Shown piece after piece: positions 17,233 through 38,492 of a stretch of 56,176 bases of DNA. Location of the stretch: positions 1 through 56,176 of the forward strand of contig DAIEQH010000001.1 of the NCBI GenBank assembly GCA_027347985.1, written 5' to 3'. How positions within the stretch are numbered: position 1 is the stretch's first letter; every line of letters starts with the position of its first letter. The position numbers were made by a program, and so were the translations under genes. This DNA comes from Candidatus Nomurabacteria bacterium (GTDB lineage: Bacteria; Patescibacteriota; Minisyncoccia; Phycocordibacterales; UBA9973). The notes beneath the pieces are model-generated. The model was given only the letters and a program-made list of their open reading frames with translations. It made no database searches and was not told where the DNA came from.

Positions 17233-18936
17233 TTAGTAGACTTCCTGATTATAGCATCTCTCACAATAAATAATCTCCGGTCTATCTGGGGAATAAGAAG
17301 TCTCAAACTCATTAGCACATCCTTCCTTCATACAATGTCTATGCCAGAGTTTAAGAGGATTTCTTTGTTTAAGTCTATTATAGTGTCTACAGTTAGGACA
17401 TAAGTGTGGAATGGGTAGATTCATTCTTTTATAGAAGGATAGTTCATCTGGTATGATTTTGAAGGCTTCAGTACATTGTTCATTACATTTACCTTTATGT
17501 TCACATTCTATGACTTTATTGATGATAGAATCATCTACTTCTTTGATGTTATTAGGAATATCTTCATTTTTGATATCTATTTGATAGTTTCTTTCTTCTT
17601 TCTCTTTCCAACTATATCCTTCCTTTAGGGCTTCTTCCTTAGTTAAGGGGAAGTATTCTTGTGCTATGGTTTCATTGTAGGAAAAGGGACTTAATTCAGA
17701 TGGAAAGAACTCTCCATACTTATATATTCTTCCTTTTTTATCCACATAGGGCATATCGTTCATGTGCTCTATGATTTTGGGAACCAAAGCTTCGTATTCT
17801 TCTTTTGTATATTGTTTGTTTAGGATGCAGTATTGCTTGGAGCGGAGACCGATGCAGGCGAAGAGGTCGTGGGACCCCGAGCAAAAATCGGAATAAGTAA
17901 GTTCATTTGAATCTCCACATGTGTTAGAAAACTTCGTTTGATTCGTCTTCCAAAAACCGAGGTATTCATAACAAAGTTCCATAAATTCACAATAGTTTGC
18001 ATCATATACATCTTTCCCATCTATCATTCTAATACAATATTTTTGATCATCACATCTTTTCACATCAAAACATTCATGTACATTTTTTGACTGAATAATA
18101 TTATTTCCAGAAACATTTTTACATTGTAATTCTACAGCAAATTTATGTGGAATGGTTGCTTTAAGTTTCAAAAATTCCTTTTTTATTTTTTCAAGACCTT
18201 CTTTTGTATCTAGTAATAATTTATCTTTTTTATCTAAATATTCTTCTCTTGTATAAGTTTTATTAAAAATATTATATTTCTGTCCACGAAGCCCTACACA
18301 ACCTATACAATCTTGGCAGTTTTTACAATCAAAACAATAGACAAGATCAAGCGAATTTGAACATTCTTGAGAAAAAATAGAATGTGAAAGTTTTTCACAA
18401 TCAATACATTCATAACAATATTCAGATTCCCGAGCAAGATAAGTGTCTACACAATATTTTGATTCATATGGTGAACCATATAAACAATTTTCTACATCAA
18501 TAGAACCGAAGCACAGATAACATGCTTTACCGTCTGCAAAATAATTACAATAATCACAATTTTTTGCATTTGATATAATCAGTGCTGGTCTTGGTGTTTT
18601 ATCTAAAAGTTTTTTAAATTGGGAGAAAAAAGTTTTTTCAAAATCATAATTTATTCTGAAATCTATAGGATTCCATTTATCTCCCCACCAACAATCATGA
18701 CAATAAACTGGGAAAGATTTATCTTTTGAATACATTGAGATAATTTGTTTCTTGCATAATTCACATACACGATGGTATAGGGTCCTTTCATTTCTCGCTG
18801 AAAAACGTCTTTGCAATCTGCATTCCGGACAAAAAGTGGGCGGAGGAACTTTTATCTTTTCATAAAAAGAAAAGTCGTCTGTCTCTATTGTGAAGTCTTT
18901 CTTGCAATTCTGACAAGATTTTATTTCTTTTTGCAT
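17233..18936 (-). CDS. Cys-rich zinc-ribbon-capped protein, paralog 1
   Basis: 567 aa with 42 Cys counted. The N-terminus has CQNCKKDFTIE..FYEKIKVPPPTFCPECR plus CELC-x17-CHDC. There are two copies of the (CxxC)n..LRxKxY(C)IxNKxYTxEEY unit. The C-terminus has LCPNCR plus C-x4-C-x17-CERC. No signal peptide. Confidence 0.7.
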   Translation of the reverse strand: MQKEIKSCQNCKKDFTIETDDFSFYEKIKVPPPTFCPECRLQRRFSARNERTLYHRVCELCKKQIISMYSKDKSFPVYCHDCWWGDKWNPIDFRINYDFEKTFFSQFKKLLDKTPRPALIISNAKNCDYCNYFADGKACYLCFGSIDVENCLYGSPYESKYCVDTYLARESEYCYECIDCEKLSHSIFSQECSNSLDLVYCFDCKNCQDCIGCVGLRGQKYNIFNKTYTREEYLDKKDKLLLDTKEGLEKIKKEFLKLKATIPHKFAVELQCKNVSGNNIIQSKNVHECFDVKRCDDQKYCIRMIDGKDVYDANYCEFMELCYEYLGFWKTNQTKFSNTCGDSNELTYSDFCSGSHDLFACIGLRSKQYCILNKQYTKEEYEALVPKIIEHMNDMPYVDKKGRIYKYGEFFPSELSPFSYNETIAQEYFPLTKEEALKEGYSWKEKEERNYQIDIKNEDIPNNIKEVDDSIINKVIECEHKGKCNEQCTEAFKIIPDELSFYKRMNLPIPHLCPNCRHYNRLKQRNPLKLWHRHCMKEGCANEFETSYSPDRPEIIYCERCYNQEVY

Positions 18937-18960
18937 TTTATTAATTTAATCTAATTTTTT

Positions 18961-18995
18961 ACTAGAGCCTAGTGCCTAAAGCCTAATGCCTAGTC
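18961..18995. repeat. NNGCCTA heptamer array (site 2, single arm)
   Basis: agagcct-agtgcct-aaagcct-aatgcct-ag, abutting and overlapping the dnaJ stop codon. Confidence 0.8.
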
Positions 18996-19882
18996 TATAT
19001 CCCCTCTTTTTTTAGTTCTTCTAGGAGTTCGCGGGCTTTTTTGGAAAGTTTGTTGGGTACTTTTATTTTTACTTTTATATACAAATCTCCGGCTTTACCA
19101 TTTTTTATCGCTTCACCACCTCCCGTCATTCTAATCATTTCTCCATCGTGAATATTTACTGGCACATTTACAGGAATCTCTACTTGTTTACGCAAAACTC
19201 CTTTGCCTTTACAGACATCACATTTTTCTTTTGGTACTTCCCCAGAACCTAAACATTCTTCACAAATTTTGGTACTTGAAATATTTCCTAGAATCGTTCT
19301 TCTCACTTCGCGAATATGCCCTTGACCATTACAATATTTACAAGTTTCCATTTTAGTGCCAGGTTTTGCACCAGAACCATGACAAGTGTTACAACTAGAA
19401 GTTTTAGTAATTGAAATTGTTCTTTCCGTCCCTAAAATTGCTTCCGAAAAAGAAATTTGTATTTCTGTAGAAATGTCTCGTCCGCGTCTTTGTTCACGTC
19501 TGCCTCCACCCATTCCTCCAGTAAAAAAATCACTGAAGATATCGTTTAGATTTCCAAAGTCAAAATCTCCACCATTGCCTCCTTGAAAACCACTAAAATC
19601 CCATTGTCCGCCTCTGGAGGAAAAACCTCCAAAACCGCCTTGAGAAGCTCCGTAGCCACCAGCCCCCATATTTTCAAAATTAGAGCCGTATTGATCGTAT
19701 TTTGCACGTTTAGTGTCATCGGAAAGGACCTGATAAGCCTCGTTTATCTCTTTAAATTTGGCCTCATTACCCTCCTTTTTGTCGGGATGGTACTTCTGGG
19801 CCAATTTGTAAAAAGCCTTCTTAATTTCATCTTTAGAAGCGCCTTTTTCAACACCTAATGTTTTATAATAGTCTTTTTGCAT
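18995..19882 (-). CDS. dnaJ: Chaperone DnaJ, short form
   Basis: J domain [12 protein letters not shown], a G/F-rich linker, and four CxxCxGxG zinc-finger repeats. Only about 70 aa follow the zinc finger (295 aa total). Confidence 0.9.
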
Positions 19883-19895
19883 AAGGTTATTATAC

Positions 19896-19974
19896 AGGCT
19901 TTAGGCTTTAGGCGCTAGGCTCTAGCTTTTAATTAATCAAGCTAATGCCTAAGGCCTAGTTGCCTAGGGCCTAG
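19896..19974. repeat. Inverted arrays of TAGGCNN heptamers (site 3)
   Basis: The left arm is aggctt-taggctt-taggcgc-taggctc-tagc. A 14-nt A/T spacer follows. The right arm is gcta-atgccta-aggccta-gttgccta-gggccta-g. Confidence 0.85.
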
Positions 19975-19978
19975 TTAT

Positions 19979-21469
19979 TTATATCATAGGTTCTGCTTCC
20001 TGAGAAGCCACCTTTTTTGTTTCTGTTTCAGAAGTTTTTTCTTCTCCTTCACTTTTATTTTTCTTCCCTTTTCCTTCAATTATTGCTTTCTCTTCTGCAC
20101 TTCGGATAATCGTTGCCTCTTCTTCTTCAATAAGTTTTTGTGCGTCACCTTTGGAGATTGAATATTTCCTGCGAGATGCATCTAAAATTTCTTGACGATA
20201 TGAAGGATGAGTCGGAGGTAAAACTCTCAAAGATTCTGCAGAAAATGGATCGTAAGATTCTCCGTCAATAGTCATTTTGATATAAAATTCTGCCACAGCC
20301 AAGTTAATCATATCTTTCACACCGAACAGAGGCTCGAATTCTGGTTTTAATTTGACGGCATCTTCTCCACCGACTCTGAAACAAATGAGACTTCCTGTGT
20401 TTCCGAGCACTGCGTGTTGCACTTGTGGAATAAGCTGTCCGATGTACTGGTGCGCTATTGTCAGATTAAGAGCATATTTTCTAGCTTCTGACAAAATGTT
20501 TTCAAATGTTTGAGTGACAATGTTGTGGAACTCGTCTATGTACAAATAAAAGTCTCGACGTTCTGCTTCTGGAATACTTGCACGCTCCATTCCAGCTTGT
20601 TTTATTTTCGTCAAGAACATTGAACCGAAGAAACTTGAATTTTCTTCTCCAATGCGTCCTTTGGAAAGATTAATGAAAATGATTTTCCCTTCATTCATTA
20701 AGTCGCTGATATCTATTTTGTTTTGTTTCTGTCCGAAAATATTTCGGAGCAATGGGTCAGAGAGAAATTGTCCGAGTTTGTTGACTAGCGGAATGATAGC
20801 GTCCGTATCAAACTTCTCGGACCAATCCGCGAATTCAATAGCGAAGAATCTTTTAACCATGTCGTCAGTAATATACTCCACCACTTTCTGTCTGTAATTT
20901 CTGTCCGTCAACATTGAAATCATTCCGCGCATTGTGGCATGAGGATAATCAAGAAGTGCAAGGCAAGTGAAACGGAAAACGTGCTCTAAACGAGGAGTCC
21001 AGTTTGCTCCGAATTGTTTCTGCAAGACTTCGATTAAACCTTGAGTCAATTGAAACTTGAACATAGGATCGACATTCGCAAGCGGATTGAAGGAAGCTGG
21101 AAATTCAACATCTCCCGGGTCTATGACACAAATATCTTCTATGCGCTCTTTCGGAATATAATCAAGCATCGCGTCTATGACATCTCCGTGTGGGTCTATC
21201 AGACAAAGCCCGTGATTGTAAGTGACATCCTGACGGATAAGGAGCTCCAAGAGCTTCGTTTTACCAACGCCAGATTTTCCTACTATATATAGGTGTCTTC
21301 TACGGTCTATGCGTTTAATACCAAAGATAAATTTCTTCTCTTCTAGAGAAGCCACATAATTTGTGCGCCCAATAAAAGAAACCTCCTCAGGTTTAACTTT
21401 TCCAAATACTGGTAATTCTGGTGGAGGTGGTCCATATTTGATTATTTGCACTCGGTTCTGTCTTAACAT
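19979..21469 (-). CDS. TraD/VirD4-like coupling-protein-type NTPase, soluble (ATPase 2)
   Basis: 496 aa. Walker A GKSGVGKT, LIDPHGD, Walker B FYLYIDEFHN and EARKYALNLTIAHQY. The C-terminal tail is acidic/Lys-rich. No TM segment. Confidence 0.75.
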   Translation of the reverse strand: MLRQNRVQIIKYGPPPPELPVFGKVKPEEVSFIGRTNYVASLEEKKFIFGIKRIDRRRHLYIVGKSGVGKTKLLELLIRQDVTYNHGLCLIDPHGDVIDAMLDYIPKERIEDICVIDPGDVEFPASFNPLANVDPMFKFQLTQGLIEVLQKQFGANWTPRLEHVFRFTCLALLDYPHATMRGMISMLTDRNYRQKVVEYITDDMVKRFFAIEFADWSEKFDTDAIIPLVNKLGQFLSDPLLRNIFGQKQNKIDISDLMNEGKIIFINLSKGRIGEENSSFFGSMFLTKIKQAGMERASIPEAERRDFYLYIDEFHNIVTQTFENILSEARKYALNLTIAHQYIGQLIPQVQHAVLGNTGSLICFRVGGEDAVKLKPEFEPLFGVKDMINLAVAEFYIKMTIDGESYDPFSAESLRVLPPTHPSYRQEILDASRRKYSISKGDAQKLIEEEEATIIRSAEEKAIIEGKGKKNKSEGEEKTSETETKKVASQEAEPMI

Positions 21470-21505
21470 ATATATTTATTTTACTACAAAATTGGCTTAA
21501 ATTCC

Positions 21506-21546
21506 ACACCTCACCCCAGCCCCTCTCCTTAGTAAAGGCGAGGGGT
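21506..21546. repeat. GC-rich palindromic mini-element, intergenic copy
   Basis: cacctcaccccagcccctctccttagtaaaggcgagggg. It belongs to the same family as 30903-30935 and, in reverse orientation, 56061-56096. Confidence 0.7.
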
Positions 21547-21548: not shown

Positions 21549-23234
21549 TTAGTATACTTCTTTATTATAACAACTCTTGCAATATATAATTTCTGGGCGT
21601 TCCGGTGCATAGCTTGTCTCAAATTCATTCTGGCATCCTTCTTTCATGCAATGTCTATGCCAGAGCTTAAATGGATTTTCTAATTGCAAACGTTCCTTTC
21701 TTCGACAATAAAAACATTTTCTAGGTATTGGAATTAAGTATTTTTTATAAAAAAGAAATTCATTTTTTGTAATTTTATAATTTCGATTACAAAGATCACA
21801 GGCTAGTACTTCATCTAATATAGATTCTTTAACTTCTAAAATTGAATCTTCTATCTGTTCTTTTTTAAGAGTTTCTTTATTTATTGTTTTTTGTACATCA
21901 TCCCACCATTTGAAACCATTATTAATTGCTTCTTCTTTGGTTAATGGAAAATATTCCATAGCTATAGTCTCATTGTATCCAAAATGTGATAATTTAGCAG
22001 GAAAAAATTCTCCATATTCTCCTGTTTTTTTCATATGTTCAATCAGTTTGTTTCTTAATTTAAAATACTCGTTTTTTGAATATTGTTTGTTTAAAATACA
22101 ATATTCTCCATGTTTGATAGCAGAACAACCAAATAGGTTTTTTGATGAATGGCAATTTTCAACATAGCTTGATTCTTGGCTTTTTAACGAATAAATAGAA
22201 AATAAAACTTGAAAATCGTGATCTGATGTGAGACTTTCATAAGACTCTGAACTTTTTCCACCAGGAGTAAGATCATAACTATCTTTTATTTCATTACTTC
22301 GCCAAATAAATCGTGAATCTTCTATTGCGCGGGACCAAAAAACATCTTTGGAATTTTTACTGTTTATTAAACCCTGTCCAGAGCATTTTACGCAATTTAA
22401 TATGTCGGCAAATCTTCTAATCTGCTTTTTCATAAATTCTGTAAACTCTTTTTTTGCTTTTTCTGATCCTGAATATGTTTCAAGATGATAATCTGCTAAT
22501 ATTTTTTCATATTTCTCTTTTGTATATTGCTTGTTCAAAATACAATATTTCTTTTGGCGTAAGTTTGCGCACATGAAACAATTAGAACAACCCTTACAAT
22601 CATAACAGAAAGAACAATCGTTGAGGGCAGAAGAATAGTAGCAATTTCGGCAATTGTAACAATGTTCCAAAAAAATTCCTTCATAAATAATTTGTGAGTA
22701 ATGAAAAATACCAAGACTGTCTACGACATCACTTGTTTCTGGACCTCCTATACTATAGCCATACATACAATCTTTGATAAACCAAGACATGGAGACCATG
22801 TAACAATTTTTAGCAAAAGTTACATTTTCTGTATATTCACAGTTTAGACTACCGATACCATCATCATTAAATAATGAGGGTAAGGGTACTTTGTCTTGCA
22901 ATTTTCTAAATTGTTCAAAAAAAGGTCGAGAAAAATCTAAATCCTGAGCATAACTTTTTGGATCCCATTTATCACTCCACCAACATTTATTACAATATAC
23001 TGTAAGCGACTTATCTTTATGATAAAGAGAAATTATAAGTTTTCCACACAAATCACAATTTCTGTTATAAAAAGTTATATCGTTACGCCAAGCCATTCTC
23101 CTTTGCTGTCTACATTCCGGACAAAAAGTCGGAGGGGGAACTTTTATCTTTTCATAAAATCCAAAATCATCTGACTCGATAGTGAAGTCTTTCTTACAGT
23201 TCTGGCAATTTTTTGTTTCACTTTTATATTCCAT
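21549..23234 (-). CDS. Cys-rich zinc-ribbon-capped protein, paralog 2
   Basis: 561 aa. CQNCKKDFTIE..FYEKIKVPPPTFCPECR, CDLC-x17-CNKC, two YCILNKQY(T/S)K units, and C-terminal CMKEGC-x17-CKSC. Confidence 0.7.
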   Translation of the reverse strand: MEYKSETKNCQNCKKDFTIESDDFGFYEKIKVPPPTFCPECRQQRRMAWRNDITFYNRNCDLCGKLIISLYHKDKSLTVYCNKCWWSDKWDPKSYAQDLDFSRPFFEQFRKLQDKVPLPSLFNDDGIGSLNCEYTENVTFAKNCYMVSMSWFIKDCMYGYSIGGPETSDVVDSLGIFHYSQIIYEGIFLEHCYNCRNCYYSSALNDCSFCYDCKGCSNCFMCANLRQKKYCILNKQYTKEKYEKILADYHLETYSGSEKAKKEFTEFMKKQIRRFADILNCVKCSGQGLINSKNSKDVFWSRAIEDSRFIWRSNEIKDSYDLTPGGKSSESYESLTSDHDFQVLFSIYSLKSQESSYVENCHSSKNLFGCSAIKHGEYCILNKQYSKNEYFKLRNKLIEHMKKTGEYGEFFPAKLSHFGYNETIAMEYFPLTKEEAINNGFKWWDDVQKTINKETLKKEQIEDSILEVKESILDEVLACDLCNRNYKITKNEFLFYKKYLIPIPRKCFYCRRKERLQLENPFKLWHRHCMKEGCQNEFETSYAPERPEIIYCKSCYNKEVY

Positions 23235-23277: not shown

Positions 23278-25029
23278 TTAGTATACCTCTTTGTTGTAAC
23301 ATTTCTCGCAATAAACTATTTCCGGTCTGTCGGGAGCATAGGCTGTCTCAAATTCATTCATACATTTTCCTGAATGCTCGTGATTCTTTTTTTCGCACAT
23401 ACAAGTCCTGTGCCAAAGCTTCATCGGATTTCTTTTTCTCAATCTTTCTTCGTGTCGACAGATAAAACAAAGCCGTGGTAAAGGCACTCCTAGTTGACGA
23501 TATAAACTCAATTCATCTTTTGTTATTTTATATGCACCCAAGCAACGATCTATACATTTCCCTTCATGTTCGCAACCAATGATTTCATTGGTAATTGATT
23601 CTGGAATATCTTCTAAGCTATCCATTATATCTTTAGCTTTCATTGTCGTGACATATTCACTTATTTTTCTGTCTCTCCATTTATATCCCCTTTTTATTGC
23701 TTCTTCTTTAGTTAAAGGAAAATAATCTTGGGCCACTGTTTCATTGTAAGTAAAAGTTGAAAATTCCGCAGGGAAAAACTCTCCATACTTATAGACAATT
23801 CCCCTCTTGTCAACATAAGGAACATCGTCCATCTGCTTTTTTATTTTAGGAATGAGAGCTTCATATTCTTCTTTAGTGTACTGTTTGTTTAAAATACAAT
23901 ATTTTTTACTTCGAAGTCCGATGCAACCAAATAAATTGTCACAACCATGGCAATTGAAAGCATATTCAATATTATTAGAACTATAAACCACACTAGTGAA
24001 AAGATTACGGAAATTTCCTATGCCAGTGTTAAATGCTTCATATATCATTTCGCCTTCCCCTATCCCCGGTCCTGAGTCATAAACATCTTTTGCATAAAGA
24101 GCAACCCAGTGTATATATTTCGAATCTTCAATTCGTGTTCCTGATGCATCAAAACAAAACTTACAATTTTTTACCCCATCTAGATTATCTCCTGTAGAAT
24201 TCACCATTTTAGAATAATTAGCAAAACGATGTATTGATTTAATATAAAGTTCATTAAATTTCTTTTTTAACTCCAAAATGGTTTTATAACTTTTTAAATT
24301 TATTTTTGCTAAGCGACTTAAATATTCATCTCTACTTAGTTGCTCATTCCACATACAATATGATTTATTGCGAAGATTTGTACAACCAAAACAATTTGTA
24401 CAACCATGACAATCGTACAAAAAACATGAATCTACACAACTTTTACAATTAAATGAATATCTAGTTCGATAACAATCAGTGCAAAACAAACAATCATAAC
24501 AAAGTTCACAACGATAACAAACATAAAGATCTCCGCAATCTGTCGTATACGAAATTCTATTAGAATAAAAAGTTCTATCTATTCTCCAAGAACCAGAACA
24601 CATATAACTGTCTTTACTTCCTTCAGCTACATTACAATAATCACTATTGGTGGCTTTTATATTTGAAAGACATTGAATAGGGCTACTATTTCTCAATTCC
24701 TCCCACTGTTTAAAAAATGGTTTAGAAAAATCATATTCTTTACCGAGGGAAATAGGGTCCCATTCATCTCCCCACCAATATTTAGAATCAACTACTTTTA
24801 ATTTTTCATTAGGATGAATAAAAGAAATCAACATTTCATCATGCCCTGGAGCATCACATTTTCTTCTAAAGAAAGACATTTCGTTTCTCCAACACAAACG
24901 GCGAACGGTCCGACATTCGGGACAGAAAGTCGGCGGAGGAACTTTTATTTTTTCATAGAATAAAAAATCTTCTATTTCTAGAGTGAAGTCTTTCTTGCAG
25001 TTCTGACAATTTTTGACTTCTTTTTTCAT
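23278..25029 (-). CDS. Cys-rich zinc-ribbon-capped protein, paralog 3
   Basis: 583 aa. Same N-terminal ribbon, but the second (x17) ribbon has lost its cysteines. Two LRxKxYC..N.Q units. C-terminal C-x17-CEKC. Confidence 0.7.
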   Translation of the reverse strand: MKKEVKNCQNCKKDFTLEIEDFLFYEKIKVPPPTFCPECRTVRRLCWRNEMSFFRRKCDAPGHDEMLISFIHPNEKLKVVDSKYWWGDEWDPISLGKEYDFSKPFFKQWEELRNSSPIQCLSNIKATNSDYCNVAEGSKDSYMCSGSWRIDRTFYSNRISYTTDCGDLYVCYRCELCYDCLFCTDCYRTRYSFNCKSCVDSCFLYDCHGCTNCFGCTNLRNKSYCMWNEQLSRDEYLSRLAKINLKSYKTILELKKKFNELYIKSIHRFANYSKMVNSTGDNLDGVKNCKFCFDASGTRIEDSKYIHWVALYAKDVYDSGPGIGEGEMIYEAFNTGIGNFRNLFTSVVYSSNNIEYAFNCHGCDNLFGCIGLRSKKYCILNKQYTKEEYEALIPKIKKQMDDVPYVDKRGIVYKYGEFFPAEFSTFTYNETVAQDYFPLTKEEAIKRGYKWRDRKISEYVTTMKAKDIMDSLEDIPESITNEIIGCEHEGKCIDRCLGAYKITKDELSLYRQLGVPLPRLCFICRHEERLRKRNPMKLWHRTCMCEKKNHEHSGKCMNEFETAYAPDRPEIVYCEKCYNKEVY

Positions 25030-27836: not shown

Positions 27837-27841
27837 ATATT

Positions 27842-28474: not shown

Positions 28475-28475
28475 G

Positions 28476-28757
28476 TTATTTATTATCTCCTGGTTCTTTT
28501 AAATCGGCCATTTGAATGGGACTTTGTATTTGTGGTGGAGTCATATCAATTTCTCCAAATTGTTTCTCGTAGTTTTGAACTTGTCCATTAATCCACATTG
28601 CTATACTTTTCATAACTTGTGGCGTAGTCGCAAAAGAATCAAGACTATTTCCAGAGGTTATGGCAAAAGTAAAAAATTCTTTTCCGTGAGCCCCAAAGGC
28701 ACCATCACAAAACTTTTTTGGTAATTGATTTATGTCTATTTTTGTTGGGTCAATCAT
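28476..28757 (-). CDS. DUF3467-like small protein
   Basis: The C-terminal part TTPQVMKSIAMWINGQVQNYEKQFGEI resembles the DUF3467 signature as I recall it (..P.hAK.l...L...i..YE..FG.I). The start was set at MIDPTK (28757) rather than the track start at 28796. Confidence 0.5.
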   Translation of the reverse strand: MIDPTKIDINQLPKKFCDGAFGAHGKEFFTFAITSGNSLDSFATTPQVMKSIAMWINGQVQNYEKQFGEIDMTPPQIQSPIQMADLKEPGDNK

Positions 28758-28804
28758 ATTTTTATTTTTTCTTATTACTAATAATAAAACTAACAATAAT
28801 TATA

Positions 28805-30811: not shown

Positions 30812-31363
30812 ATGTCAAGCAAAATAGAATATTCCAATAAAATACTCAAGATTTTGGCAGAAAAACCAGCTATTCCTGTAGATGAAATAAAGAAAAAAAT
30901 TACCACCCCAGACCCCCTCTTCCACAAGGAGGGGGCATATGCCTTAACTCGCTCAATAAAAAATTTGATTGAGTCTGGATGTATTGAAATGATTCAATCT
31001 GACAATAAGAGCTATTTGAAGTTAACCAAAAAAGGAAAAAATAAATTAAACTCCATCAAACTCGAGGGAGATCAAGCACTCGTGTCTAATACTTGGGACG
31101 GTTTGTGGAGAATAATTATTTTAGATATTCCAGAAAACAGAAAAAACGAACGAGAAAGTTTGCGTTATCTTTTAAAGAAAGCTGATTTCGTTTGTATCAA
31201 AAATACTGTTTGGATATCCCCTTTTCCTTACGAACATCTTTTTACAAATATTAAAAAAGATTTAGGTCTCGGTACCGAGCTCATGATTATCGTCACAGAC
31301 AAAATTGACGAAGAAACAAAAAAATATTTTTTAAATAATGTTTTTAAATCCTCCAGCTTGTAA
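30812..31363 (+). CDS. PaaX-family-like winged-helix regulator
   Basis: N-terminal wHTH-like region plus WDGLWRIIILDIPENRKNERESLRYLLKKADFVCIKNTVWISP (PaaX C-domain pattern). It is divergent from dnaK. The 3' end overlaps the convergent ABC gene by 33 nt. Confidence 0.6.
   Translation: MSSKIEYSNKILKILAEKPAIPVDEIKKKITTPDPLFHKEGAYALTRSIKNLIESGCIEMIQSDNKSYLKLTKKGKNKLNSIKLEGDQALVSNTWDGLWRIIILDIPENRKNERESLRYLLKKADFVCIKNTVWISPFPYEHLFTNIKKDLGLGTELMIIVTDKIDEETKKYFLNNVFKSSSL
30903..30935. repeat. GC-rich palindromic mini-element, in frame inside the PaaX-like ORF
   Basis: ccaccccagaccccctcttccacaaggaggggg, encoding TTPDPLFHKEG. Confidence 0.65.
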
Positions 31364-33112
31364 ATCCCAGAGTTTTTTGTAAACTCCATCTTTTTTATTT
31401 GCGAGCTCCTCATGGTTTCCATCTTCCATAATTTTCCCATTTTTTATAACGATGATTCTATCCATTTGCCTTATAGTAGAAAGTCTGTGTGCAATGACTA
31501 TTGTCGTCTTCCCTTTTATAAGTTTGACGAGAGCATCCTGAATCAATGCTTCAGAGTGAGAATCAAGAGAAGATGTCGCTTCATCTAAAATAAGTATTGG
31601 GGCATTTTTAAGAATCGCCCTAGCGATAGCCACACGCTGTCGTTCACCACCTGAAAGTTTTACTCCTCGCTCCCCTACATATGTCTCATATTTTTCTGGC
31701 AATTGGTCTATAAAGTCATCACAGTGAGCTAAGTGGGATGCTACTAATACTTCTTCGTCTGTAGCATCTCTTCTACCATAACGAATATTCTCCATTAAAG
31801 TACGATGAAAAAGTACAGGATCTTGTGGAACGAAAGCAATTTGTTCTCGAAGATTTTCTTGAGAAATTTTGCTGATATCTATTCCGTCAATCATGATTTT
31901 GCCATCAGTAAGATTAAATAACCTCATAAGCAAGCGTACAAAGGTCGTTTTGCCAGAACCAGAAGGACCAACGATAGCTATTTTCTGTCCTGCAGGTATA
32001 ATTAAAGAAAAATTATCTAATATTCTATTGTTATTGTTTTTATAAATATAAGTCACATTATTAAAAGCGACTTCCCCTTTTATATTTTTGGCAATTTCTG
32101 TCGGTTTATCAATAATTTCATATGGCATATCTAAAATAAGAGCCATCTCTTGAGCATCAGCAAAACTCTCATAAAATGCACGAGTAATTGAACCAAAACT
32201 CCAAAGATTTTCAATAAGACGAATTAAATAACTTTGCAACAATACAATAACAGGTAAAGAAATAAGTCCTAACTTCCAATCAGCGAGAGCAATCCAAAAA
32301 ACAATAAATTCAATGGAAAGAGAATAAAAAGATTCAATGGCATTTAAACCTTCCCATAGATACCAATTAAAGGTCGCTATCTTGTTTTGTTTTTCTGTTG
32401 TATATCTAACACGTTCATCTTCTTCCTTTTGACCAGTAAATAACTGAATTGAAGAATGATTACCTATAGAATCAGATAAAACTCCGGTGGTTTCACTATC
32501 ACTTTCCGCTGAAAGAATATCATATTTAAGTTTATATCTTATATAAATAAAAGCTGTTAATATAAATACAACACAAAATATTCCTAAAATATAAGAGTAT
32601 TTTGGAAGTAAAGTATAAATGGCAATAACTGTACCAACACCACGAACAAGAAGTGGTAAGCCATCAAAAATCATTCTATCAGCTAGTTTTTTAAAGGCTA
32701 TTGCATATTTATTTATTTTTCTCACTAATGATCCACCAAAATTATTTACAAAAAAAGAAAAGGAATGGCCTACCATATATGAAAATGCTTGTTGTCTAAG
32801 ACCTGTCATAACGCTCGATTCAAAATATGCGAGAGAAAATCCTGCAATTCTACGAATAGCCCAACGAAAAAGATTTAATACTAAAATAAAAATAATTATT
32901 GATTTTGCTACTCCCACAACTGTAAAATTGTTTGCGCTTAAAGCATTCCAAAGTTTCAAATATTGAAACGGAATATAAACATCAAGAATCGAAGCCACTA
33001 CCGTGGTAATAACAACAGTAAAAAACGACACTTTAAAATGTTTAATAACTTGCCAAAAATATTTAAGCACCAACATACGGTGCAAATTTGAATAATCTTT
33101 TTCTTTGTCCAT
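31331..33112 (-). CDS. ABC exporter, fused permease/ATPase (MsbA-type half transporter)
   Basis: Six-TM N-terminal domain, Walker A GPSGSGKTT, signature LSGGERQRVAIARA, and Walker B ILILDEATSSLD. Confidence 0.9.
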   Translation of the reverse strand: MDKEKDYSNLHRMLVLKYFWQVIKHFKVSFFTVVITTVVASILDVYIPFQYLKLWNALSANNFTVVGVAKSIIIFILVLNLFRWAIRRIAGFSLAYFESSVMTGLRQQAFSYMVGHSFSFFVNNFGGSLVRKINKYAIAFKKLADRMIFDGLPLLVRGVGTVIAIYTLLPKYSYILGIFCVVFILTAFIYIRYKLKYDILSAESDSETTGVLSDSIGNHSSIQLFTGQKEEDERVRYTTEKQNKIATFNWYLWEGLNAIESFYSLSIEFIVFWIALADWKLGLISLPVIVLLQSYLIRLIENLWSFGSITRAFYESFADAQEMALILDMPYEIIDKPTEIAKNIKGEVAFNNVTYIYKNNNNRILDNFSLIIPAGQKIAIVGPSGSGKTTFVRLLMRLFNLTDGKIMIDGIDISKISQENLREQIAFVPQDPVLFHRTLMENIRYGRRDATDEEVLVASHLAHCDDFIDQLPEKYETYVGERGVKLSGGERQRVAIARAILKNAPILILDEATSSLDSHSEALIQDALVKLIKGKTTIVIAHRLSTIRQMDRIIVIKNGKIMEDGNHEELANKKDGVYKKLWDLQAGGFKNII

Positions 33113-33178: not shown

Positions 33179-34888
33179 TTAATAGATTTCTTTCTTATAA
33201 CACTCACTACAAAGCACTTTTTTAGGACCACCTTTTTCCTCTCGCAAATAAGTGGTGTTAATCTCTTTCTTACATAGAAAACATTCTCTTTTGTTTAAAA
33301 TCATAGGATTACGAAGCTTTAATCTTCTATTGTGTCGTTCTTCCGGATGAATCGAGGGTAACGGTAAATCAAATCTTCTATAAAAATTTAATTCTTGTTC
33401 TATAATTTTAAAAGGTTTACCGGTAATTTCACATTCGATAACTTCATTTAAAATAGAATCATTTACTTCAGAGATTGTCTTCGGTAAATCTTTACCTTTT
33501 ATTGTAACTTTATAAGAGCCAGGAATATATTCACGCCATAGGTATCCCTTCTCTTCTGCTGTTTTTTTATCTAAAGGAAAATAATCTTGAGCAACAGTTT
33601 CATTGTAAGCAAAAGGAGAAAGCTCGGAAGGAAAAAATTCACCATATTTATATACTCTACCTTTTTTGTCTACATATGGCATATCTAGCATATGCTGTTT
33701 TATTTTAGGAACCAGTTCTTCATATTTTTCTTTCGTATATTGTTTATTTAGAATACAGTATTTTTTCCCATTCATTTCTGTACAACCAAAACAATTCTGA
33801 CAATTATTCATCATAAAACTATAATAAATATCTTGAGAATACCAAATAATTGCACCCAAAAAACATTTACTATTTTCAACCCCAATACTTATACCTTCAT
33901 ATGTTAATTCTGAATTACCCCCAGAACCAGGACCGACATCATAAGCGTCACTACACCCCTGACTACCCCAATTTGCATATTTTACATTTTGAAATTCACC
34001 GTCTAAATCAAAAACATTATAACAATTGCGTGAGTTATATACATGGTCGCCGACAACATTTACAGTATTTACGAGTTTCACATCTCTATGAAATGCTTCT
34101 TCCCAAAGTTTTTTAAATTTGTTTCTAGCCTCTTCTATACCATCACGCGTGTTAAAAGCAAACTCATTTTTCTTCTTTAAATATTCCTCTTTTGTATATT
34201 GAATATTTTCAATGCAGTAAGTTTTATTTCTAAGATTAGTACATAAAATACAGTTAGAACAATTTCGGCAATCATATAAAAAATAAGAATCTAGGCAAGA
34301 TTCACTTTCTAGTGAAAAAAATAATCTACTGGAGTCTCGGCAATATACATTTTCATATCCGAACTCCAAATCATAACAAATATAAGAATCCTGAATAAAT
34401 TTACATCTAGATGCTCTATTGCAATATACGGAATCTTCACAATTCCAAGCTGCAGTAACTAAATAGCAGTTTTTCATTTCAACTGTTACATTACAAAATC
34501 TAGAATTTACCGACTTTGAATCAGATAAGGCAAGATGTGGCACTTCTTCCATAAGTTCAGCAAATTGTTTTAAAAATGGTTTAGAAAAATCATATTCTCT
34601 TCCATAAGAAGATGAATCCCATTTATCACTCCACCACATTTCTTTATCATAAGTTTTTACTCTAGCATCAGGATGAAAAACTGAGATAATTAAATCTTTT
34701 TTTCTCTCTTCTGCGTCTTGTCTACGAAACAACGAATGTTCATTTCGCCAAACGAGACGACGAGTTAGCCGACACTCTGGACACCAAGTAGGTGGAGGAA
34801 CTTTTATCTTTTCATAAAAATTAAAATCTTCCAACTCTATGGTAAAGTCTTTTTTGCAGTTCTGGCATTGTTTGATTTCTGATTTCAT
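33179..34888 (-). CDS. Cys-rich zinc-ribbon-capped protein, paralog 4
   Basis: 569 aa. CQNCKKDFTIE..FYEKIKVPPPTWCPECR. The x17 ribbon is degenerate. Two YCI.N.QYTKE.Y units. C-terminal CFLC-x20-CSEC. Confidence 0.7.
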   Translation of the reverse strand: MKSEIKQCQNCKKDFTIELEDFNFYEKIKVPPPTWCPECRLTRRLVWRNEHSLFRRQDAEERKKDLIISVFHPDARVKTYDKEMWWSDKWDSSSYGREYDFSKPFLKQFAELMEEVPHLALSDSKSVNSRFCNVTVEMKNCYLVTAAWNCEDSVYCNRASRCKFIQDSYICYDLEFGYENVYCRDSSRLFFSLESESCLDSYFLYDCRNCSNCILCTNLRNKTYCIENIQYTKEEYLKKKNEFAFNTRDGIEEARNKFKKLWEEAFHRDVKLVNTVNVVGDHVYNSRNCYNVFDLDGEFQNVKYANWGSQGCSDAYDVGPGSGGNSELTYEGISIGVENSKCFLGAIIWYSQDIYYSFMMNNCQNCFGCTEMNGKKYCILNKQYTKEKYEELVPKIKQHMLDMPYVDKKGRVYKYGEFFPSELSPFAYNETVAQDYFPLDKKTAEEKGYLWREYIPGSYKVTIKGKDLPKTISEVNDSILNEVIECEITGKPFKIIEQELNFYRRFDLPLPSIHPEERHNRRLKLRNPMILNKRECFLCKKEINTTYLREEKGGPKKVLCSECYKKEIY

Positions 34889-35001
34889 TTTATTTAAAAT
34901 TCCTCAACCAAAAAATTTTAACTCTAAATTTAATTGTCTGCCAAGCCATAGGCATGACATATCTGATATATTTTATTTTTGTTTTTATTCTTTCCATTTT
35001 A

Positions 35002-36780
35002 TTATATAAATTCTGCTTGATAACATTTCTCACAATATACTATCTCTTTTCTTTCAGGACTTATGGCTGTTTCAAATTCATTTTGACAAGGACTATTTCC
35101 GTGTATATGTTTTATGGTATTTTTATATACACCATCTTTTGATTCTACACCACTACACATACATTTTCTATGCCAAAGTTTTGGTGGATTTTTCTTTTTA
35201 ATTCGTTCACCATAACGACAATTTGGACATAAGTGAGGTAAAGCTATATTCGCCGAACGAAGAAACTGTAATTCATCAGGTAAAATGCGAAACACTTCAG
35301 TACATTCTTGTTTGCAATCTTCGTCTTTATGTTCACAAGAAATAACTTCATTTAATATAGAATCGTCTACTTCTTTTATATGATTTGGTAAATTTTCTGC
35401 TTTTATTGTTATTTGATAATTTTTTTCTTTCTTATCATACCATTTAAATCCTTTTTCCAATGCTTCCTCTTTACTTAATGGAAAATATTTATGTGCCCAA
35501 GTTTCATTATAGGCCCATAGAGAAAATTCACTTGGAAAATATTCACCATATTTGTATATTCTTCCTTTACTATCTATATAGGGCATTTCATTCATATGTT
35601 TAATAATTTTTGGTATTAGTTCTTCGTATTCAACTTTCCCGTATTGTTTATTTAAAATACAATATTTTTTATTTTTTAACTTTGTACAACCAAAACAATA
35701 AGAACAATTGTACATTTTTTCTGTATATGTTAAATCTCTAGAATCATAAGGAGCTCTACCAAAAAAACATCTTTGAGAGTGGAGGCCTCCAGAATTCTCA
35801 TAATAGAGTTCGGAACTACCGCCACCCAAAATAACATCATAACTATCTTTCAACAAAAGGCCACTAAGAAAAACATATTTACAATTTTCTATACCAAGAA
35901 GCGTAGAAAAACAAGTCTGACAATTTTTCGTTTGTTTTATATCATCCCCAGTAACATTTTTAGAGTTTATAATAATGGCAAAGCGTCTTGGAGTTTTGTC
36001 ATAGAGTTCTAAGAATTTTTTTTGTGCCTCCTGAATAGTCTTATAACTTCCTAAATCCCATTTCATCATTTCTTTCTCATACTCTTCTTTTGTGTATTGT
36101 TTATTAAAAATACAATATTTTTGATTTCTCAAATTAACACAACCAAAACAATTTGTGCATCCTATACAATTAAAAAGGAAAGAAGAATCGAGACATTCAT
36201 TTGAAAAATAGGTAAATTTCGTATTAAAAACTCCATTTGAATATATAGTTTCGTAAGTATGATCAGCATTTACAATTACATCGGAATCTAATAAATCTCT
36301 AGAAAATATTGGATTACCACAATAATAACAATTTATGCTTTGAAAAGATCCGAAAGTAAGCCTACAATTTTTACTACGTATAGTGGTATCACAATAATCG
36401 CAATCAGTACAATTTCTATTATCCGTAGCTTGGTAAGGTACTTCGTTTTGTAAATTCAAAAATTGTTCAAAAAATGGTTTTGAAAAATCATAGTCTCGTC
36501 CATAATCCAATTGATTCCAACTGTCTCCCCACCAGCAACTGTTACAATAGACAATATAAGAAGTATCAGGACGATATAAACTTACAATTTCTTTACCACA
36601 CTTATCACAACTATCTTTATATAAAAATCTATCTCCAATAAAAGTAAGTCGACGAATAAGTCTGCATTCCGGACACCAGGTCGGCGGAGGAACCTTAATT
36701 TTCTCATAGAAATTAAAGTCTTCGGGCTCAATCGTGAAGTCTTGTTTACAGTTTTGGCATTGTCGTGTTTCGTTTTTCAT
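35002..36780 (-). CDS. Cys-rich zinc-ribbon-capped protein, paralog 5
   Basis: 592 aa. CQNCKQDFTIE..PPPTWCPECR, CDKC-x17-CNSC, two YCI(F/L)NKQY units, and C-terminal C-x17-CEKC. Confidence 0.7.
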   Translation of the reverse strand: MKNETRQCQNCKQDFTIEPEDFNFYEKIKVPPPTWCPECRLIRRLTFIGDRFLYKDSCDKCGKEIVSLYRPDTSYIVYCNSCWWGDSWNQLDYGRDYDFSKPFFEQFLNLQNEVPYQATDNRNCTDCDYCDTTIRSKNCRLTFGSFQSINCYYCGNPIFSRDLLDSDVIVNADHTYETIYSNGVFNTKFTYFSNECLDSSFLFNCIGCTNCFGCVNLRNQKYCIFNKQYTKEEYEKEMMKWDLGSYKTIQEAQKKFLELYDKTPRRFAIIINSKNVTGDDIKQTKNCQTCFSTLLGIENCKYVFLSGLLLKDSYDVILGGGSSELYYENSGGLHSQRCFFGRAPYDSRDLTYTEKMYNCSYCFGCTKLKNKKYCILNKQYGKVEYEELIPKIIKHMNEMPYIDSKGRIYKYGEYFPSEFSLWAYNETWAHKYFPLSKEEALEKGFKWYDKKEKNYQITIKAENLPNHIKEVDDSILNEVISCEHKDEDCKQECTEVFRILPDELQFLRSANIALPHLCPNCRYGERIKKKNPPKLWHRKCMCSGVESKDGVYKNTIKHIHGNSPCQNEFETAISPERKEIVYCEKCYQAEFI

Positions 36781-36821
36781 GTTCTAATGCTTATTTTTGT
36801 CAAAGCCGAGCTTTGACATTT

Positions 36822-38492
36822 TTAGTTGATATTTTGCTTATAACACTCTTCACAAGCTATTTTTTGATATCCCCACTCTGGTAAATAATACGCTTCTATC
36901 TCCTTTTTACAATAAATACATTTATATGCATATGCTTGCAATACTGTTAAATCTTTCAAACTATTTTTTATTCTGACATCAAAATGCAACCTTGGGAGTG
37001 GAATATTATTTTCTTTATAAAAAATAAGTTCATTTTTTGCAATGTTAAAACGCCAGCCAGTTTCTGGGCAAATAAGCGCTTGAGTGATTATTGTATCCGA
37101 TACGTCTTTGATATCATCTGGCAATTCACTCGTTTGCATACCTTCTAAATTTTCTTCAACAATATCTTCCCAATAACCACCGAGTTTTAAGATATCTTCT
37201 TTTCTTGTCCTTGGGAAATAAGTAAAGCTGGTAGAAAAATTAAAAGGCCCAGCACTCATAGAATAAGGCAAAAACTTACCATATTCTCCTCTTTTTCTCA
37301 TGTCTTCAATAATCTTTGTCTTGAGCTTGTCGAAAGATTCTTTGGTGTATTGCTTATTTAAAATACAATATTTTTTCTTTTTTAAACCAACACAACCGAA
37401 ACAATATTCACACTCAATACATAAATCTATATATTCAGAATATCTTGAAGAAGACCAAACCGAATACTTAAGAGAAAAAGCATTTACACAGGCAGCACAA
37501 TTGCCAGATAATTCCATATACCAACAACCATTCGTATCAATGTTAGATTTTTCTTTTATTCCTCTAATACAATTAAAACAATCCTCACTTTCATTTATAG
37601 TATAACAACTATGACAATTCTTACAGTCTAACAAATAATCTCCAGTCGAATCATATATTCTAAAATTAAAGTTTGGTCTATGTATTACTTCTTTTTTTAC
37701 AATCTCTTCAAAGTGCTTCTTGTGATTTTGTATAGATTCATAAGAACCAAGCTTAAACGATTTTAATTTTTCTAAATACTCTTCCCTTTCATACTGAACA
37801 TTCTCTATACAATAGGATTTACCCCTTAAATTCCAACACATAAAACAATTCTGGCAGTTACGACAATCATAAAGAAAATATGAATCTACGCAATCTCGAG
37901 AGTGTTTGGAGTAAAATAGTTTGTAAGAATGATGACAGTCGCCAATTTCATAACATTTTTCTGAAGTAAAGCTGATAACTGCTTCGATAGAATTTTTAAC
38001 TTTCAAATCTCTATAACAATAATATAGGTCTTCACATTCTTCCATTGAGCGTGCTAAATAACAATTTTTAGAATTCCAGACATCATCACACCATTCGCAA
38101 TTTGTATTCTTTATACCATTCTGGTGCGGATGGGGGACTTTTTCTTGAAGCTCTTGAAGTTGTTCAAAAAACGACTTATTTTCATCATAATCTTGACCAT
38201 AATCCATCGCATCCCATTTATCGCTATACCATTCCGTGGAAGTATAAATCGGATAGCGATTTTTCTCTGGCAAAACTGTGATTAAACTTTCTCCCGAAAG
38301 GTCTGATTTACCTTTTCGAAATTTTCCAAACATCCAGAAAGATAAATGTATTTTTACACGACAAAAGAAACATATTACAGGTAATTCTATACCGACTTTT
38401 TCATACAAAGAAAGTTCCCCCTCTGTTATTTCAAAGGAATTATTACAGTGCTCACAAGTTTTACTTTGCTGTTTCATTGTACTCAAAAACAT
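36822..38492 (-). CDS. Cys-rich zinc-ribbon-capped protein, paralog 6 (most divergent)
   Basis: 556 aa. CEHCNNSFEITEGELSLYEK..CFFCR, two YCI(E/L)N.QY units, and C-terminal CIYC-x18-CEEC. An alternative start is M6 at 38477. With either start, the 5' end overlaps the grpE 3' end. Confidence 0.65.
   Translation of the reverse strand: MFLSTMKQQSKTCEHCNNSFEITEGELSLYEKVGIELPVICFFCRVKIHLSFWMFGKFRKGKSDLSGESLITVLPEKNRYPIYTSTEWYSDKWDAMDYGQDYDENKSFFEQLQELQEKVPHPHQNGIKNTNCEWCDDVWNSKNCYLARSMEECEDLYYCYRDLKVKNSIEAVISFTSEKCYEIGDCHHSYKLFYSKHSRDCVDSYFLYDCRNCQNCFMCWNLRGKSYCIENVQYEREEYLEKLKSFKLGSYESIQNHKKHFEEIVKKEVIHRPNFNFRIYDSTGDYLLDCKNCHSCYTINESEDCFNCIRGIKEKSNIDTNGCWYMELSGNCAACVNAFSLKYSVWSSSRYSEYIDLCIECEYCFGCVGLKKKKYCILNKQYTKESFDKLKTKIIEDMRKRGEYGKFLPYSMSAGPFNFSTSFTYFPRTRKEDILKLGGYWEDIVEENLEGMQTSELPDDIKDVSDTIITQALICPETGWRFNIAKNELIFYKENNIPLPRLHFDVRIKNSLKDLTVLQAYAYKCIYCKKEIEAYYLPEWGYQKIACEECYKQNIN

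Follow-up and report, generated by a model that had tools for sequence, protein, structure and literature searches.

Arrays of cysteine-rich proteins with zinc-finger-like caps, encoded amongst genes for soluble VirD4-like ATPases and Hsp70 chaperones in Patescibacteria

Six paralogous genes and the predicted architecture of their products

The DNA analysed here, referred to throughout as the window, is a 56,176-nt stretch of contig DAIEQH010000001.1 from a Candidatus Nomurabacteria assembly (GCA_027347985.1), with a GC content of approximately 30-38% (mean ~34%). It is an ordinary chromosomal stretch, encoding recG, ftsH, smpB together with tmRNA, infC, rplT, a ribosomal-protein/rpoA block, alaS, mnmA and others, and 10 kb of its 56 kb are occupied by six genes for cysteine-rich proteins of an unnamed family that is labelled F in this study. 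The F genes lie amongst genes encoding VirD4-like ATPases and the chaperones GrpE, DnaK and DnaJ; this gene neighbourhood, overlooked in the preliminary description of the window, is the most informative feature of the family.

All six F genes are encoded on the reverse strand. Paralog 1 (17233-18936; 567 aa, 42 Cys) lies directly downstream of dnaJ, paralog 2 (21549-23234; 561 aa, 34 Cys) directly upstream of an ATPase gene labelled A4, and paralog 3 (23278-25029; 583 aa, 40 Cys) directly downstream of a second ATPase gene, A6. The remaining three are paralog 4 (33179-34888; 569 aa, 29 Cys), paralog 5 (35002-36780; 592 aa, 38 Cys) and paralog 6 (36822-38492; 556 aa, 35 Cys), the last being the most divergent copy. 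In end-to-end alignments, paralogs 2 to 6 were 47, 46, 45, 49 and 33% identical to paralog 1, respectively. The preliminary description had reported six open reading frames (ORFs) of 556-592 aa at these positions; all were confirmed, at 33-49% identity, and a recount agreed with the 42 cysteines it had assigned to paralog 1. No seventh F copy or fragment was found when all window ORFs were scanned with domain hidden Markov models (HMMs). The six ORFs are genuine, anciently duplicated paralogous genes.

The motifs previously listed for the family, WW.DKWDP, YCILNKQYTKEEY and GEFFP..YNET..YFPL, were all found. An N-terminal ribbon consensus had been described as common to the six proteins, and from this paralog 6 departs strongly. 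The alignment agreed that paralogs 1, 2 and 5 have precisely CxxC-x17-CxxC as their second N-terminal ribbon and that it is lost in paralogs 3, 4 and 6, the fourth paralog also being devoid of the first C-terminal cysteine site. In the last C-terminal ribbon, the C-x2-C spacing proposed for the first cysteine pair applies to paralogs 4 and 6, but this pair is C-x4-C in paralogs 1 and 2 and longer still in paralogs 3 and 5. Similarity over the first ~130 nt of the genes, taken earlier as conservation at the DNA level, was indeed seen, but mean identity at the 5' ends was 84% at codon positions 1 and 2 versus 52% at position 3. It is therefore a by-product of protein conservation, and a DNA-level conserved element was rejected on these values.

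Domain HMMs were run over the ORFs of 85 related loci (1.3 Mb) and of the window, and the module order A-B-B'-mid-A' (cap, solenoid, solenoid, acidic mid domain, cap) was recovered in 207 ORFs. Other combinations were contig-end truncations or frameshifts, and no domain architecture beyond such truncations turned up in the 1.3 Mb of related loci. In paralog 1, module A (18652-18936, reverse strand, as are the modules that follow; aa 1-95) is the N-terminal cap and comprises two zinc-knuckle units with the ligand spacing C8-x2-C11...C36-x2-C39, then C58-x2-C61-x17-C79-x2-C82. Module B (18217-18651; aa 96-240) is the first predicted beta-solenoid, with approximately eight coils of a 12-residue repeat, and is closed by LRxKxY.I.NK.YT.EEY and a helix. 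Module B' (17782-18216; aa 241-385) is the second solenoid copy and ends in YCILNKQYTKEEY. It is followed by the mid module (17527-17781; aa 386-470), which carries GEFFP..S.F.YNET.A..YFPL.KEEA..GY.W, and by module A' (17236-17526; aa 471-567), the C-terminal cap, with ligands C484/C488...C513-x2-C516, then C535-x4-C540-x17-C558-x2-C561. The isoelectric points (pI) of these modules divide the protein into basic caps (8.8 and 8.1), acidic solenoids (5.05 and 5.95) and an acidic mid domain (4.7).

That the caps are alike at both ends and that the core is duplicated had been proposed from inspection, and both duplications proved significant in profile-profile comparisons (hhalign) of sub-alignments drawn from 76 aligned sequences, namely the six window paralogs and 70 database relatives. 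The N-terminal cap (positions 9-83) matched the C-terminal cap (486-562) with a probability of 99.3% (E 3.3e-20), and core copy 1 (103-237) matched copy 2 (251-385) with a probability of 99.9% (E 3.5e-34).

Cysteine conservation was scored on 197 full-length F members from related loci. Amongst the cap sites, N1 was complete in 193 members, C2 in 188 and C1 in 170, whilst N2, the CxxC-x17-CxxC site, was complete in 107 and is thus dispensable in 46%; C478 was conserved in 100%. Residues conserved in at least 90% of members were mostly Cys, aromatic, Pro, Gly and Asn, and no catalytic-looking set stood out amongst them. Each second Cys pair leads into a helix rich in Arg; R40, R517 and R521 are conserved in 93-100%. 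The number of cysteines per protein ranged from 24 to 51 and was even in only 53% of members, which argues against a fully disulfide-bonded protein; a disulfide-rich secreted protein was rejected on this lack of parity bias. Neither a transmembrane-like segment nor a hydrophobic N-terminus or signal peptide was found in the F proteins, in keeping with the preliminary description.

The multiple alignment proposed earlier as a means of mapping cysteine ligands gave a divided answer, in that the cap sets were conserved and most core columns were variable. Judged from the alignment, only the cap cysteines appear to behave as conserved Cys4 ligand sets, and the F caps are zinc-finger-like, constituting predicted metal sites. 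Small CxxC-x17-CxxC proteins of Methanosarcina mazei bind zinc, as determined by inductively coupled plasma mass spectrometry (PMC12704099), and zinc is therefore favoured over Fe-S for the F caps. The earlier prediction of metal binding (Zn or Fe-S) by these proteins is thus supported for the caps but not for the whole core as a set of metal sites, the core columns being mostly 26-76% Cys.

The core had been described as a succession of closely spaced CxxC runs. It is rich in cysteine, but when 90 copies of B and B' were aligned, a strict, gap-free register of six residues (a hexad) extended over approximately 16 hexads, two hexads making up a 12-residue unit in which Cys or Ser falls on positions 3 and 6 of each hexad, that is, on each third residue. 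The consensus of the 12-residue super-repeat is approximately x-[DN]-C-Y-x-[CS]-[FY]-x-V-x-x-S, and the autocorrelation of Cys(+Ser) frequency peaked at all multiples of 3, with values of 0.4-0.6. In the 197 members, cysteine in most core columns was replaced by Ser, Val, Leu, Thr or Ile. Since the core cysteines recur at each third residue and are swapped with Ser, Val or Leu, the core is predicted to be a solenoid and not a string of metal sites. There were conserved exceptions amongst the core cysteines, including C361 (96%) and C370 (87%) at the end of B'. In the last coil of B, C204, C207, C210 and C213 were each conserved in 84-94%, with all four present in 123 of the 197 members and Leu, Val, Met and Ser as the substitutes.

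A full-length AlphaFold2 model had a predicted local distance difference test score (pLDDT) of 84.8 and a predicted template modelling score of 0.85, with the caps and mid domain above 90 (the mid domain at ~90-96). A model of B alone, built from an alignment of 42 B/B' copies, reached a pLDDT of 85.5 and showed short stacked strands between a first helix and a closing one; in both models, the core was composed of stacked short beta-strands. We infer from repeat register and models that B and B' are probably narrow beta-solenoids with an interior ladder of Cys, Ser and Val, and filling of the interior by these residues would render the core cysteines exchangeable. When the full-length model was compared with the PDB by Foldseek, template modelling scores did not exceed 0.16. 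The top neighbours of the full-length and B models, none of them significant, were almost all beta-helices or solenoids, including gamma-carbonic anhydrase, LpxA/LpxD, PglD, the SV2A pentapeptide domain, RP2/CAP, AlbG, pectate-lyase-like proteins and phage tailspikes. Against BFVD, the full-length model retrieved only small zinc-ribbon matches, none at E <= 0.001. The sole match to the core amongst PDB sequence profiles was a beetle antifreeze protein (1ezg), at a non-significant E of 0.59, and no PDB profile matched the mid domain.

Distribution, gene neighbourhood and associated ATPases

A word-indexed search for F relatives was saturated, with at least 7,975 significant relatives (7,975 of 8,000 scored candidates). 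The named relatives were all annotated as 'hypothetical protein' and originated from Paceibacterota, Nomurabacteria, Staskawiczbacteria, Liptonbacteria and related groups. An exhaustive HMM search covering 1.84 billion protein representatives at 50% identity retrieved 5,217 proteins at E <= 1e-3 and 2,251 at E <= 1e-30, and amongst the best 150 matches listed nearly all were 540-600 aa in length and matched end-to-end. Scanning a single genome for each GTDB species confirmed at least 578 loci, of which the best 80 were almost all in Patescibacteria genome bins. Related loci and contigs are labelled L001-L086. Three F-bearing contigs were labelled with other taxa, namely L008 (Burkholderiales), L039 (Bacteroidales) and L076 (Bdellovibrionales). 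The first has the order A6-F-F-A4-dnaJ-F-F, which is the full Patescibacteria-type synteny, and the last has a partial version of it, and hence the taxon labels of L008 and L076 are probably binning errors; L039 is a contig of only 1.8 kb without visible context. The F family is thus very large and unnamed, and its sampled members are found almost only in Patescibacteria.

Between 1 and 12 F copies were present per locus, with the maximum of 12 tandem copies in L021, and the genome bin JBAYFP01 harboured at least 14 across L010, L034 and L079. The window paralogs have orthologues in other genomes that are 67-81% identical, versus 33-47% for the best paralog within the window. Paralog 1 has orthologues at 70-80% identity in other Patescibacteria, and several of the others have positional counterparts: paralog 2 before A4 in L034 and L036 (70-72%), paralog 3 after A6 in L008, L080 and L014 (69-75%), paralog 4 in L080 (81%), where it likewise stands ahead of an ABC exporter gene, and paralog 6 directly after grpE in L057 and L079 (77-79%). 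Identities of this kind, together with the orthologous positions, indicate that the duplications are old and that each copy has been kept by selection; divergence at synonymous sites was seen alongside conserved protein sequence. Average-linkage clustering of the 197 members yielded no clean orthologous groups, and best-hit and positional analysis was used instead.

The neighbourhood was screened in six-frame ORFs of the 85 related loci with HMMs and phmmer. In the window, read along the reverse strand, a ribosomal-protein block whose last gene is rpsI precedes grpE, paralogs 6, 5 and 4, an ABC exporter gene, an opposite-strand PaaX-like ORF, dnaK, three small ORFs, A6, paralogs 3 and 2, A4, dnaJ, paralog 1, map and a third ATPase gene, A9. 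A co-directional order of grpE, F(n), dnaK, A6, F(n), A4, dnaJ and F recurs elsewhere, completely or partially, and its genes adjoin closely or overlap. In many genomes the F arrays and the two ATPase genes are interspersed in this fixed order amongst the genes of the grpE-dnaK-dnaJ operon. The grpE-F(n) segment was found in L045, L057, L059, L079 and L080; dnaK-A6-F in L011, L014, L036, L053, L054, L065, L067 and L080 (and with a gap in L076); and A4-dnaJ-F in L008, L013, L014, L034, L036, L065 and L080, with a wider gap before F in L067. The A4-dnaJ pair was also present in L006, L026, L046 and L084. Arrays bracketed by the ATPase genes but without chaperone genes were A4-F(4-7)-A6 in L052, L062, L068 and L083, A6-F(8) in L001 and A4-F(8) in L049.

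Partner genes within 10 kb of an F gene were counted in 81 independent loci. An ATPase gene was present in 33 and a chaperone gene in 25, with both in 17, an ATPase gene only in 16 and a chaperone gene only in 8. ATPase adjacency rose with the number of F copies, from 4 of 30 single-copy loci through 13 of 29 loci with two or three copies to 16 of 22 loci with at least four.

The labels A4, A6 and A9 denote the three P-loop ATPases of the window that resemble VirD4, TraG, TrwB and HerA, all encoded on the reverse strand, and no transmembrane segment was found in any of them. A6 (25046-27130) is a soluble VirD4/TraG/HerA-like ATPase that carries a CxxC-x17-CxxC finger towards its C terminus, as well as a K/E-rich tail. 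Its Pfam matches are TrwB_AAD_bind, DUF87, TraG-D_C and zf_Tbcl_2, the last with 45.5 bits (cut-off 27), and it also passes TIGR04272 with 49.2 bits. This finger is of the same type as those of the F caps and is kept in all A6 relatives, which are 69-94% identical and annotated only as 'CxxC-x17-CxxC domain-containing' or 'type IV secretion system DNA-binding domain-containing'; A6 adjoins F genes in many loci. A4 (19979-21469) is a minimal soluble VirD4/TraG/HerA-like ATPase encoded directly upstream of dnaJ. A9 (13534-16281) is a VirD4/TraD-like protein of 915 aa with an N-terminal extension of ~480 aa, for which no family match was found; none of the other loci showed this long form, and membership of A9 in the F module is uncertain.

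A survey of Patescibacteria described 5,713 VirD4-like homologues in 2,918 genomes, only 148 of them near virB4, and its authors raised the possible recruitment of these ATPases to another function (PMC12102498). The cassette of F, A4 and A6 genes is a concrete context for such orphan VirD4-like ATPases. When window ORFs of at least 100 aa were scanned for Pfam families, none matched the VirB4, VirB6 or VirB8 types.

All three chaperone genes of the cluster are likewise on the reverse strand. The first gene of the extended cluster, grpE (38461-39042; Pfam GrpE, 9e-38), overlaps at its end the start of paralog 6 by 32 nt (38461-38492), which suggests translational coupling as a possibility at this junction; grpE-F junctions as tight as that of the window occur in L045, L057, L079 and L080. 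The dnaK gene (28805-30712; Pfam HSP70, 3e-244) has a strong sigma-70-like site (11 of 12 matches) just upstream, at 30818-30789. The dnaJ product (18995-19882) is short, at 295 aa, with Pfam matches to DnaJ, DnaJ_CXXCXGXG and DnaJ_C, its J and zinc-finger domains being accompanied by an incomplete version of the usual C-terminal domain.

An MsbA/HlyB-type ABC exporter is encoded between paralog 4 and dnaK (31331-33112, reverse strand). True orthologues stand beside F genes in two other loci only, L079 and L080, and more distant full-length ABC exporters in L046 and L053; the exporter was therefore rejected as a core component and is probably only loosely associated. The only plus-strand gene inside the cluster (30812-31363), between dnaK and the exporter gene, has a weak match to PaaX, a winged-helix regulator, and may encode a local regulator. 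Three small reverse-strand ORFs of 106, 210 and 218 aa (27180-28796) lie between dnaK and A6, the one of 218 aa, upstream of A6, having three transmembrane-like segments. They had no above-threshold family match and no counterpart in L001-L084; two closely related metagenome contigs, L085 and L086, carry the 210- and 218-aa genes upstream of A6 as in the window.

Several other features of the window were recorded. Two IS200-like Y1 transposase ORFs, at 3885-4580 (reverse) and 43824-44576 (forward), lie ~39 kb apart in opposite orientation and flank the entire housekeeping and F-gene region. A tRNA-Ile gene at 3745-3818 (reverse) has the anticodon TAT (UAU), an uncommon bacterial route to AUA codons. 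A tRNA-Ser gene at 1098-1187 (forward) overlaps the called TTG start of the recG ORF (1130-3352, forward), indicating that the true recG start is further downstream, and a second, divergent tRNA-Ser gene is located at 943-1028. The tmRNA gene adjoins smpB (6597-6997 and 7011-7457, both reverse) and has an unusually long predicted tag peptide, AKLTSKAFAKISPYFGVKDFAFARVSATA. A protein with sigma-70 region 4 and HARE-HTH domains is encoded at 53623-54651 (reverse), and the same architecture occurs in L001 (1110-2138), ~4 kb upstream of A6 and ~6 kb upstream of the F array. ORFs of 137-438 aa without a Pfam family match are located at 44613-45929, 45939-47114, 52235-53530 and 12212-12625, all on the reverse strand.

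A possible function of the F proteins and its alternatives

Taking architecture and neighbourhood together, it is quite possible, though short of probable, that the F proteins are non-enzymatic, cytoplasmic, rod-shaped scaffolds or adaptors that are handled by repurposed soluble VirD4-like ATPases, often with Hsp70. Each F protein would be a rigid rod of two stacked narrow beta-solenoids with a Cys/Ser ladder inside. The basic Zn(Cys)4 fingers at both rod ends would serve as partner-binding modules, with the acidic parts between them (solenoids and mid domain) forming a rigid platform or spacer. The paralogs would be non-redundant, acting either as subunits of mixed assemblies or as adaptors for different partners. 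A4 and A6 would be ring ATPases, homologous to type IV coupling proteins, that have lost the membrane anchor and acquired a new role, in which they might load, assemble or remodel F proteins or F-bound partners with the assistance of DnaK, DnaJ and GrpE.

Several observations weigh against this proposal. Neither ATPase nor chaperone genes were in reach in 40 of the 81 loci, many of these 40 being short contigs or single-copy genes amongst unrelated housekeeping genes (for instance, L003), and operon membership is the only tie of F to the ATPases or DnaK. A search for the heat-shock operator CIRCE (controlling inverted repeat of chaperone expression) found none, and promoter-like sites occurred at background frequency and terminator-like sites near background; co-regulation with heat-shock genes is accordingly not shown. 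On the structural side, the solenoid fold is a prediction only, the B region has a pLDDT of only 61-66 in the full-length model, and Foldseek returned no significant match in the PDB (best E of 0.54 for the full-length model and 0.11 for B, with template modelling scores of at most 0.26). The C204-x2-C207-x2-C210-x2-C213 coil, conserved at 84-94%, could also be an extra metal site.

Two alternatives interpret the F proteins by what they might bind. The basic caps could hold DNA or RNA, the acidic rod could keep them apart or mimic a duplex, and the ATPases could be DNA translocases working on the substrate that the F proteins bind. We regard this as unlikely, albeit deserving of attention. In its favour are the basic caps (pI 8.8 and 8.1) beside acidic solenoids and mid domain, the Arg-rich helix after the second Cys pairs (R40, R517 and R521, 93-100%), weak matches of the ATPases to the DNA-translocating families TraD, CedD and HerA, and the appearance amongst the Foldseek neighbours of AlbG, a member of a pentapeptide-repeat class that mimics DNA. 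However, no DNA- or RNA-binding domain was above threshold in F, treble-clef and LIM-like fingers often bind proteins, and the link to the chaperone operon would be left unexplained. Somewhat less likely is a cytoplasmic multi-metal protein, whose core would bind Zn or Fe-S, buffer thiol redox or act as an Hsp33-like, redox-switched holdase that hands clients to DnaK. The 24-51 cysteines per protein, the CxxCxxCxxC coil at the end of B with all four Cys in 123 of 197 members, and the embedding of F genes in a dnaK operon would fit such a role, but true ligands would not tolerate the Ser, Val, Leu or Thr found in most core columns (26-76% Cys), neither a ferredoxin-type motif nor a Pfam Fe-S family match was found, and 46% of members do without the second N-terminal site.

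Three further alternatives concern export, chance proximity and defence. If they were exported cargo, either effectors or surface proteins, they would be recognised by the ATPases or the ABC exporter, kept unfolded by DnaK and folded outside by disulfide formation in the manner of insect antifreeze beta-helices. VirD4-like ATPases beside many-paralog arrays, an MsbA/HlyB-type exporter in the cluster of a few genomes and a 12-residue repeat resembling the beetle antifreeze TCTxSxxCxxAx are in line with export, which is nonetheless improbable: the ATPases lack a membrane anchor, no VirB4, VirB6 or VirB8 genes are in the window, there is no bias towards even Cys numbers (53%), Cys4 fingers are typical of intracellular proteins, orthologues at 67-81% identity across genomes are not effector-like, and the ABC gene is linked in only four to five loci. 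We give equally little credence to the absence of any functional link, by which F proteins would be abundant, hard-to-fold products or neutral expansions lying near chaperone and ATPase genes by historical accident. Half of the loci do lack both partners, and single-copy genes occur in unrelated neighbourhoods; gene order, tight junctions and positional orthology are nevertheless kept at 67-81% F identity, ATPase adjacency rises with F copy number, and A6 bears an F-type finger. An anti-phage defence system or mobile-element cargo is highly improbable. Weak matches of the ATPases to the PADLOC mad8 and HerA models would point that way, but PADLOC did not match F (paralogs 1 and 6), tblastn searches with F found no match in 50,697 phage and 72,556 plasmid records, the F genes are surrounded by housekeeping genes, including those for ribosomal proteins and chaperones, and the orthologues are conserved and syntenic rather than patchy. 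With the PADLOC and phage/plasmid searches empty for F, a defence system was rejected and is largely refuted.

The scaffold or adaptor proposal can be extended to a more specific one, which in its full form we consider somewhat unlikely: that F arrays, two anchor-less VirD4-like ATPases and Hsp70 constitute an unrecognised, Patescibacteria-specific cytoplasmic machine, in which coupling-protein ATPases diverted from secretion would assemble or remodel hetero-oligomeric, zinc-capped beta-solenoid rods from ancient paralogs. The Patescibacteria, or candidate phyla radiation, account for a large part of bacterial diversity, and in their very small genomes much of the conserved gene content has no assigned function. 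In these organisms the F family amounts to thousands of sequence clusters with a rigid five-module architecture, for which no family name, structure or literature was found. Placement of F genes between two soluble VirD4-like ATPases, inside a grpE-dnaK-dnaJ operon, offers a testable handle on function, both for the F family and for the thousands of 'orphan' coupling-protein homologues. If such a machine exists, it would explain most of the approximately two 'orphan' type IV coupling protein homologues per Patescibacteria genome and would provide a role for one of the largest uncharacterised gene families of the phylum.

Comparison with known families and systems

The preliminary description could not place the core in a named family, and searches of Pfam, NCBIfam, PADLOC, PDB profiles and Foldseek agreed, all being without a significant match; profile and structure searches of the kind it had suggested returned no full-length match to a characterised family. 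Neither Pfam nor NCBIfam had an above-threshold match for any of the six paralogs or the 76 aligned sequences, and a Med15 KIX match on the helix after YT.EEY was judged spurious. No prior description of the F family was found in the literature searched.

The closest resemblance of the caps is to the treble-clef finger of PF23477 (zf_Tbcl_2) and TIGR04272, whose C-x2-C-x17-C-x2-C spacing is present at aa 58-82 in paralogs 1, 2 and 5. The finger was matched in 9 of the 76 aligned sequences (best E 2.3e-6), and paralog 5 matched it weakly at aa 53-83, with 15.3 bits against PF23477 (cut-off 27) and 13.4 bits against TIGR04272 (cut-off 36). Thus the curated cut-off is not reached by the window F paralogs, whereas it is reached by the neighbouring A6. 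It is moreover a 35-residue module, equivalent to ~6% of an F protein, and the site is lost in about half of the family. LIM-domain proteins such as CRP1 and CRP2 also have tandem Cys-rich zinc knuckles, and a profile match was obtained in the last C-terminal unit, at positions 526-563 (E 1e-3); this match is marginal and spans ~38 residues, and LIM being a eukaryotic family, the resemblance is one of finger type and not of the whole protein. No CxxCxxCxxxCP-type motif or Pfam Fe-S match of the kind expected of ferredoxin-type Fe-S proteins was found in F, nor did any F protein match DnaJ or DnaJ_CXXCXGXG at E <= 1, in contrast to DnaJ-type co-chaperones. ZPR1, a chaperone that works with Hsp70, has tandem zinc finger and beta-helix modules, and Hsp33 possesses a Zn-Cys redox switch and passes clients to DnaK, DnaJ and GrpE; both are functional analogies only, as F did not match either in the Pfam, PDB profile or Foldseek searches.

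The ATPases of the window resemble the coupling proteins VirD4, TraG and TrwB in matching TrwB_AAD_bind, T4SS-DNA_transf and TraG-D_C, but they are without the N-terminal membrane anchor and their scores are far below the equivalog cut-offs.

With respect to the core, the beetle antifreeze (thermal hysteresis) protein 1ezg shares a 12-residue repeat with small residues at each third position (Cys, Ser and Val in F), and the every-third-residue pattern of its repeat TCTxSxxCxxAx is that of the F core. In the beetle repeat, these small residues face inward. The antifreeze protein, however, is secreted and disulfide-bonded with a Thr ice-binding face, whereas F lacks a signal peptide, Cys parity and a TxT ladder. 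The hexapeptide left-handed beta-helices (LpxA, gamma-carbonic anhydrase, PglD) and pentapeptide beta-helices (AlbG, Qnr) are similar in hexad periodicity and predicted stacked strands, yet F has neither an [LIV]-G-x4 nor an A(D/N)LxX motif and no Pfam Hexapep or Pentapeptide match. Its small residues are spaced i, i+3 and not i, i+4 as in the hexapeptide helix, and it is without the acyltransferase or carbonic anhydrase residues of LpxA and gamma-carbonic anhydrase.

The F family, its mid domain, the intracellular solenoid with a Cys/Ser ladder and 12-residue coils, and the ATPase/dnaK cassette match nothing described in the libraries and literature searched and lie well outside known families. 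Treble-clef zinc fingers and the beta-solenoid are, by comparison, familiar kinds of module, and if the fold prediction is true, the F proteins would combine them into a new kind of beta-solenoid, with an intracellular Cys/Ser ladder, 12-residue coils and zinc-finger caps.

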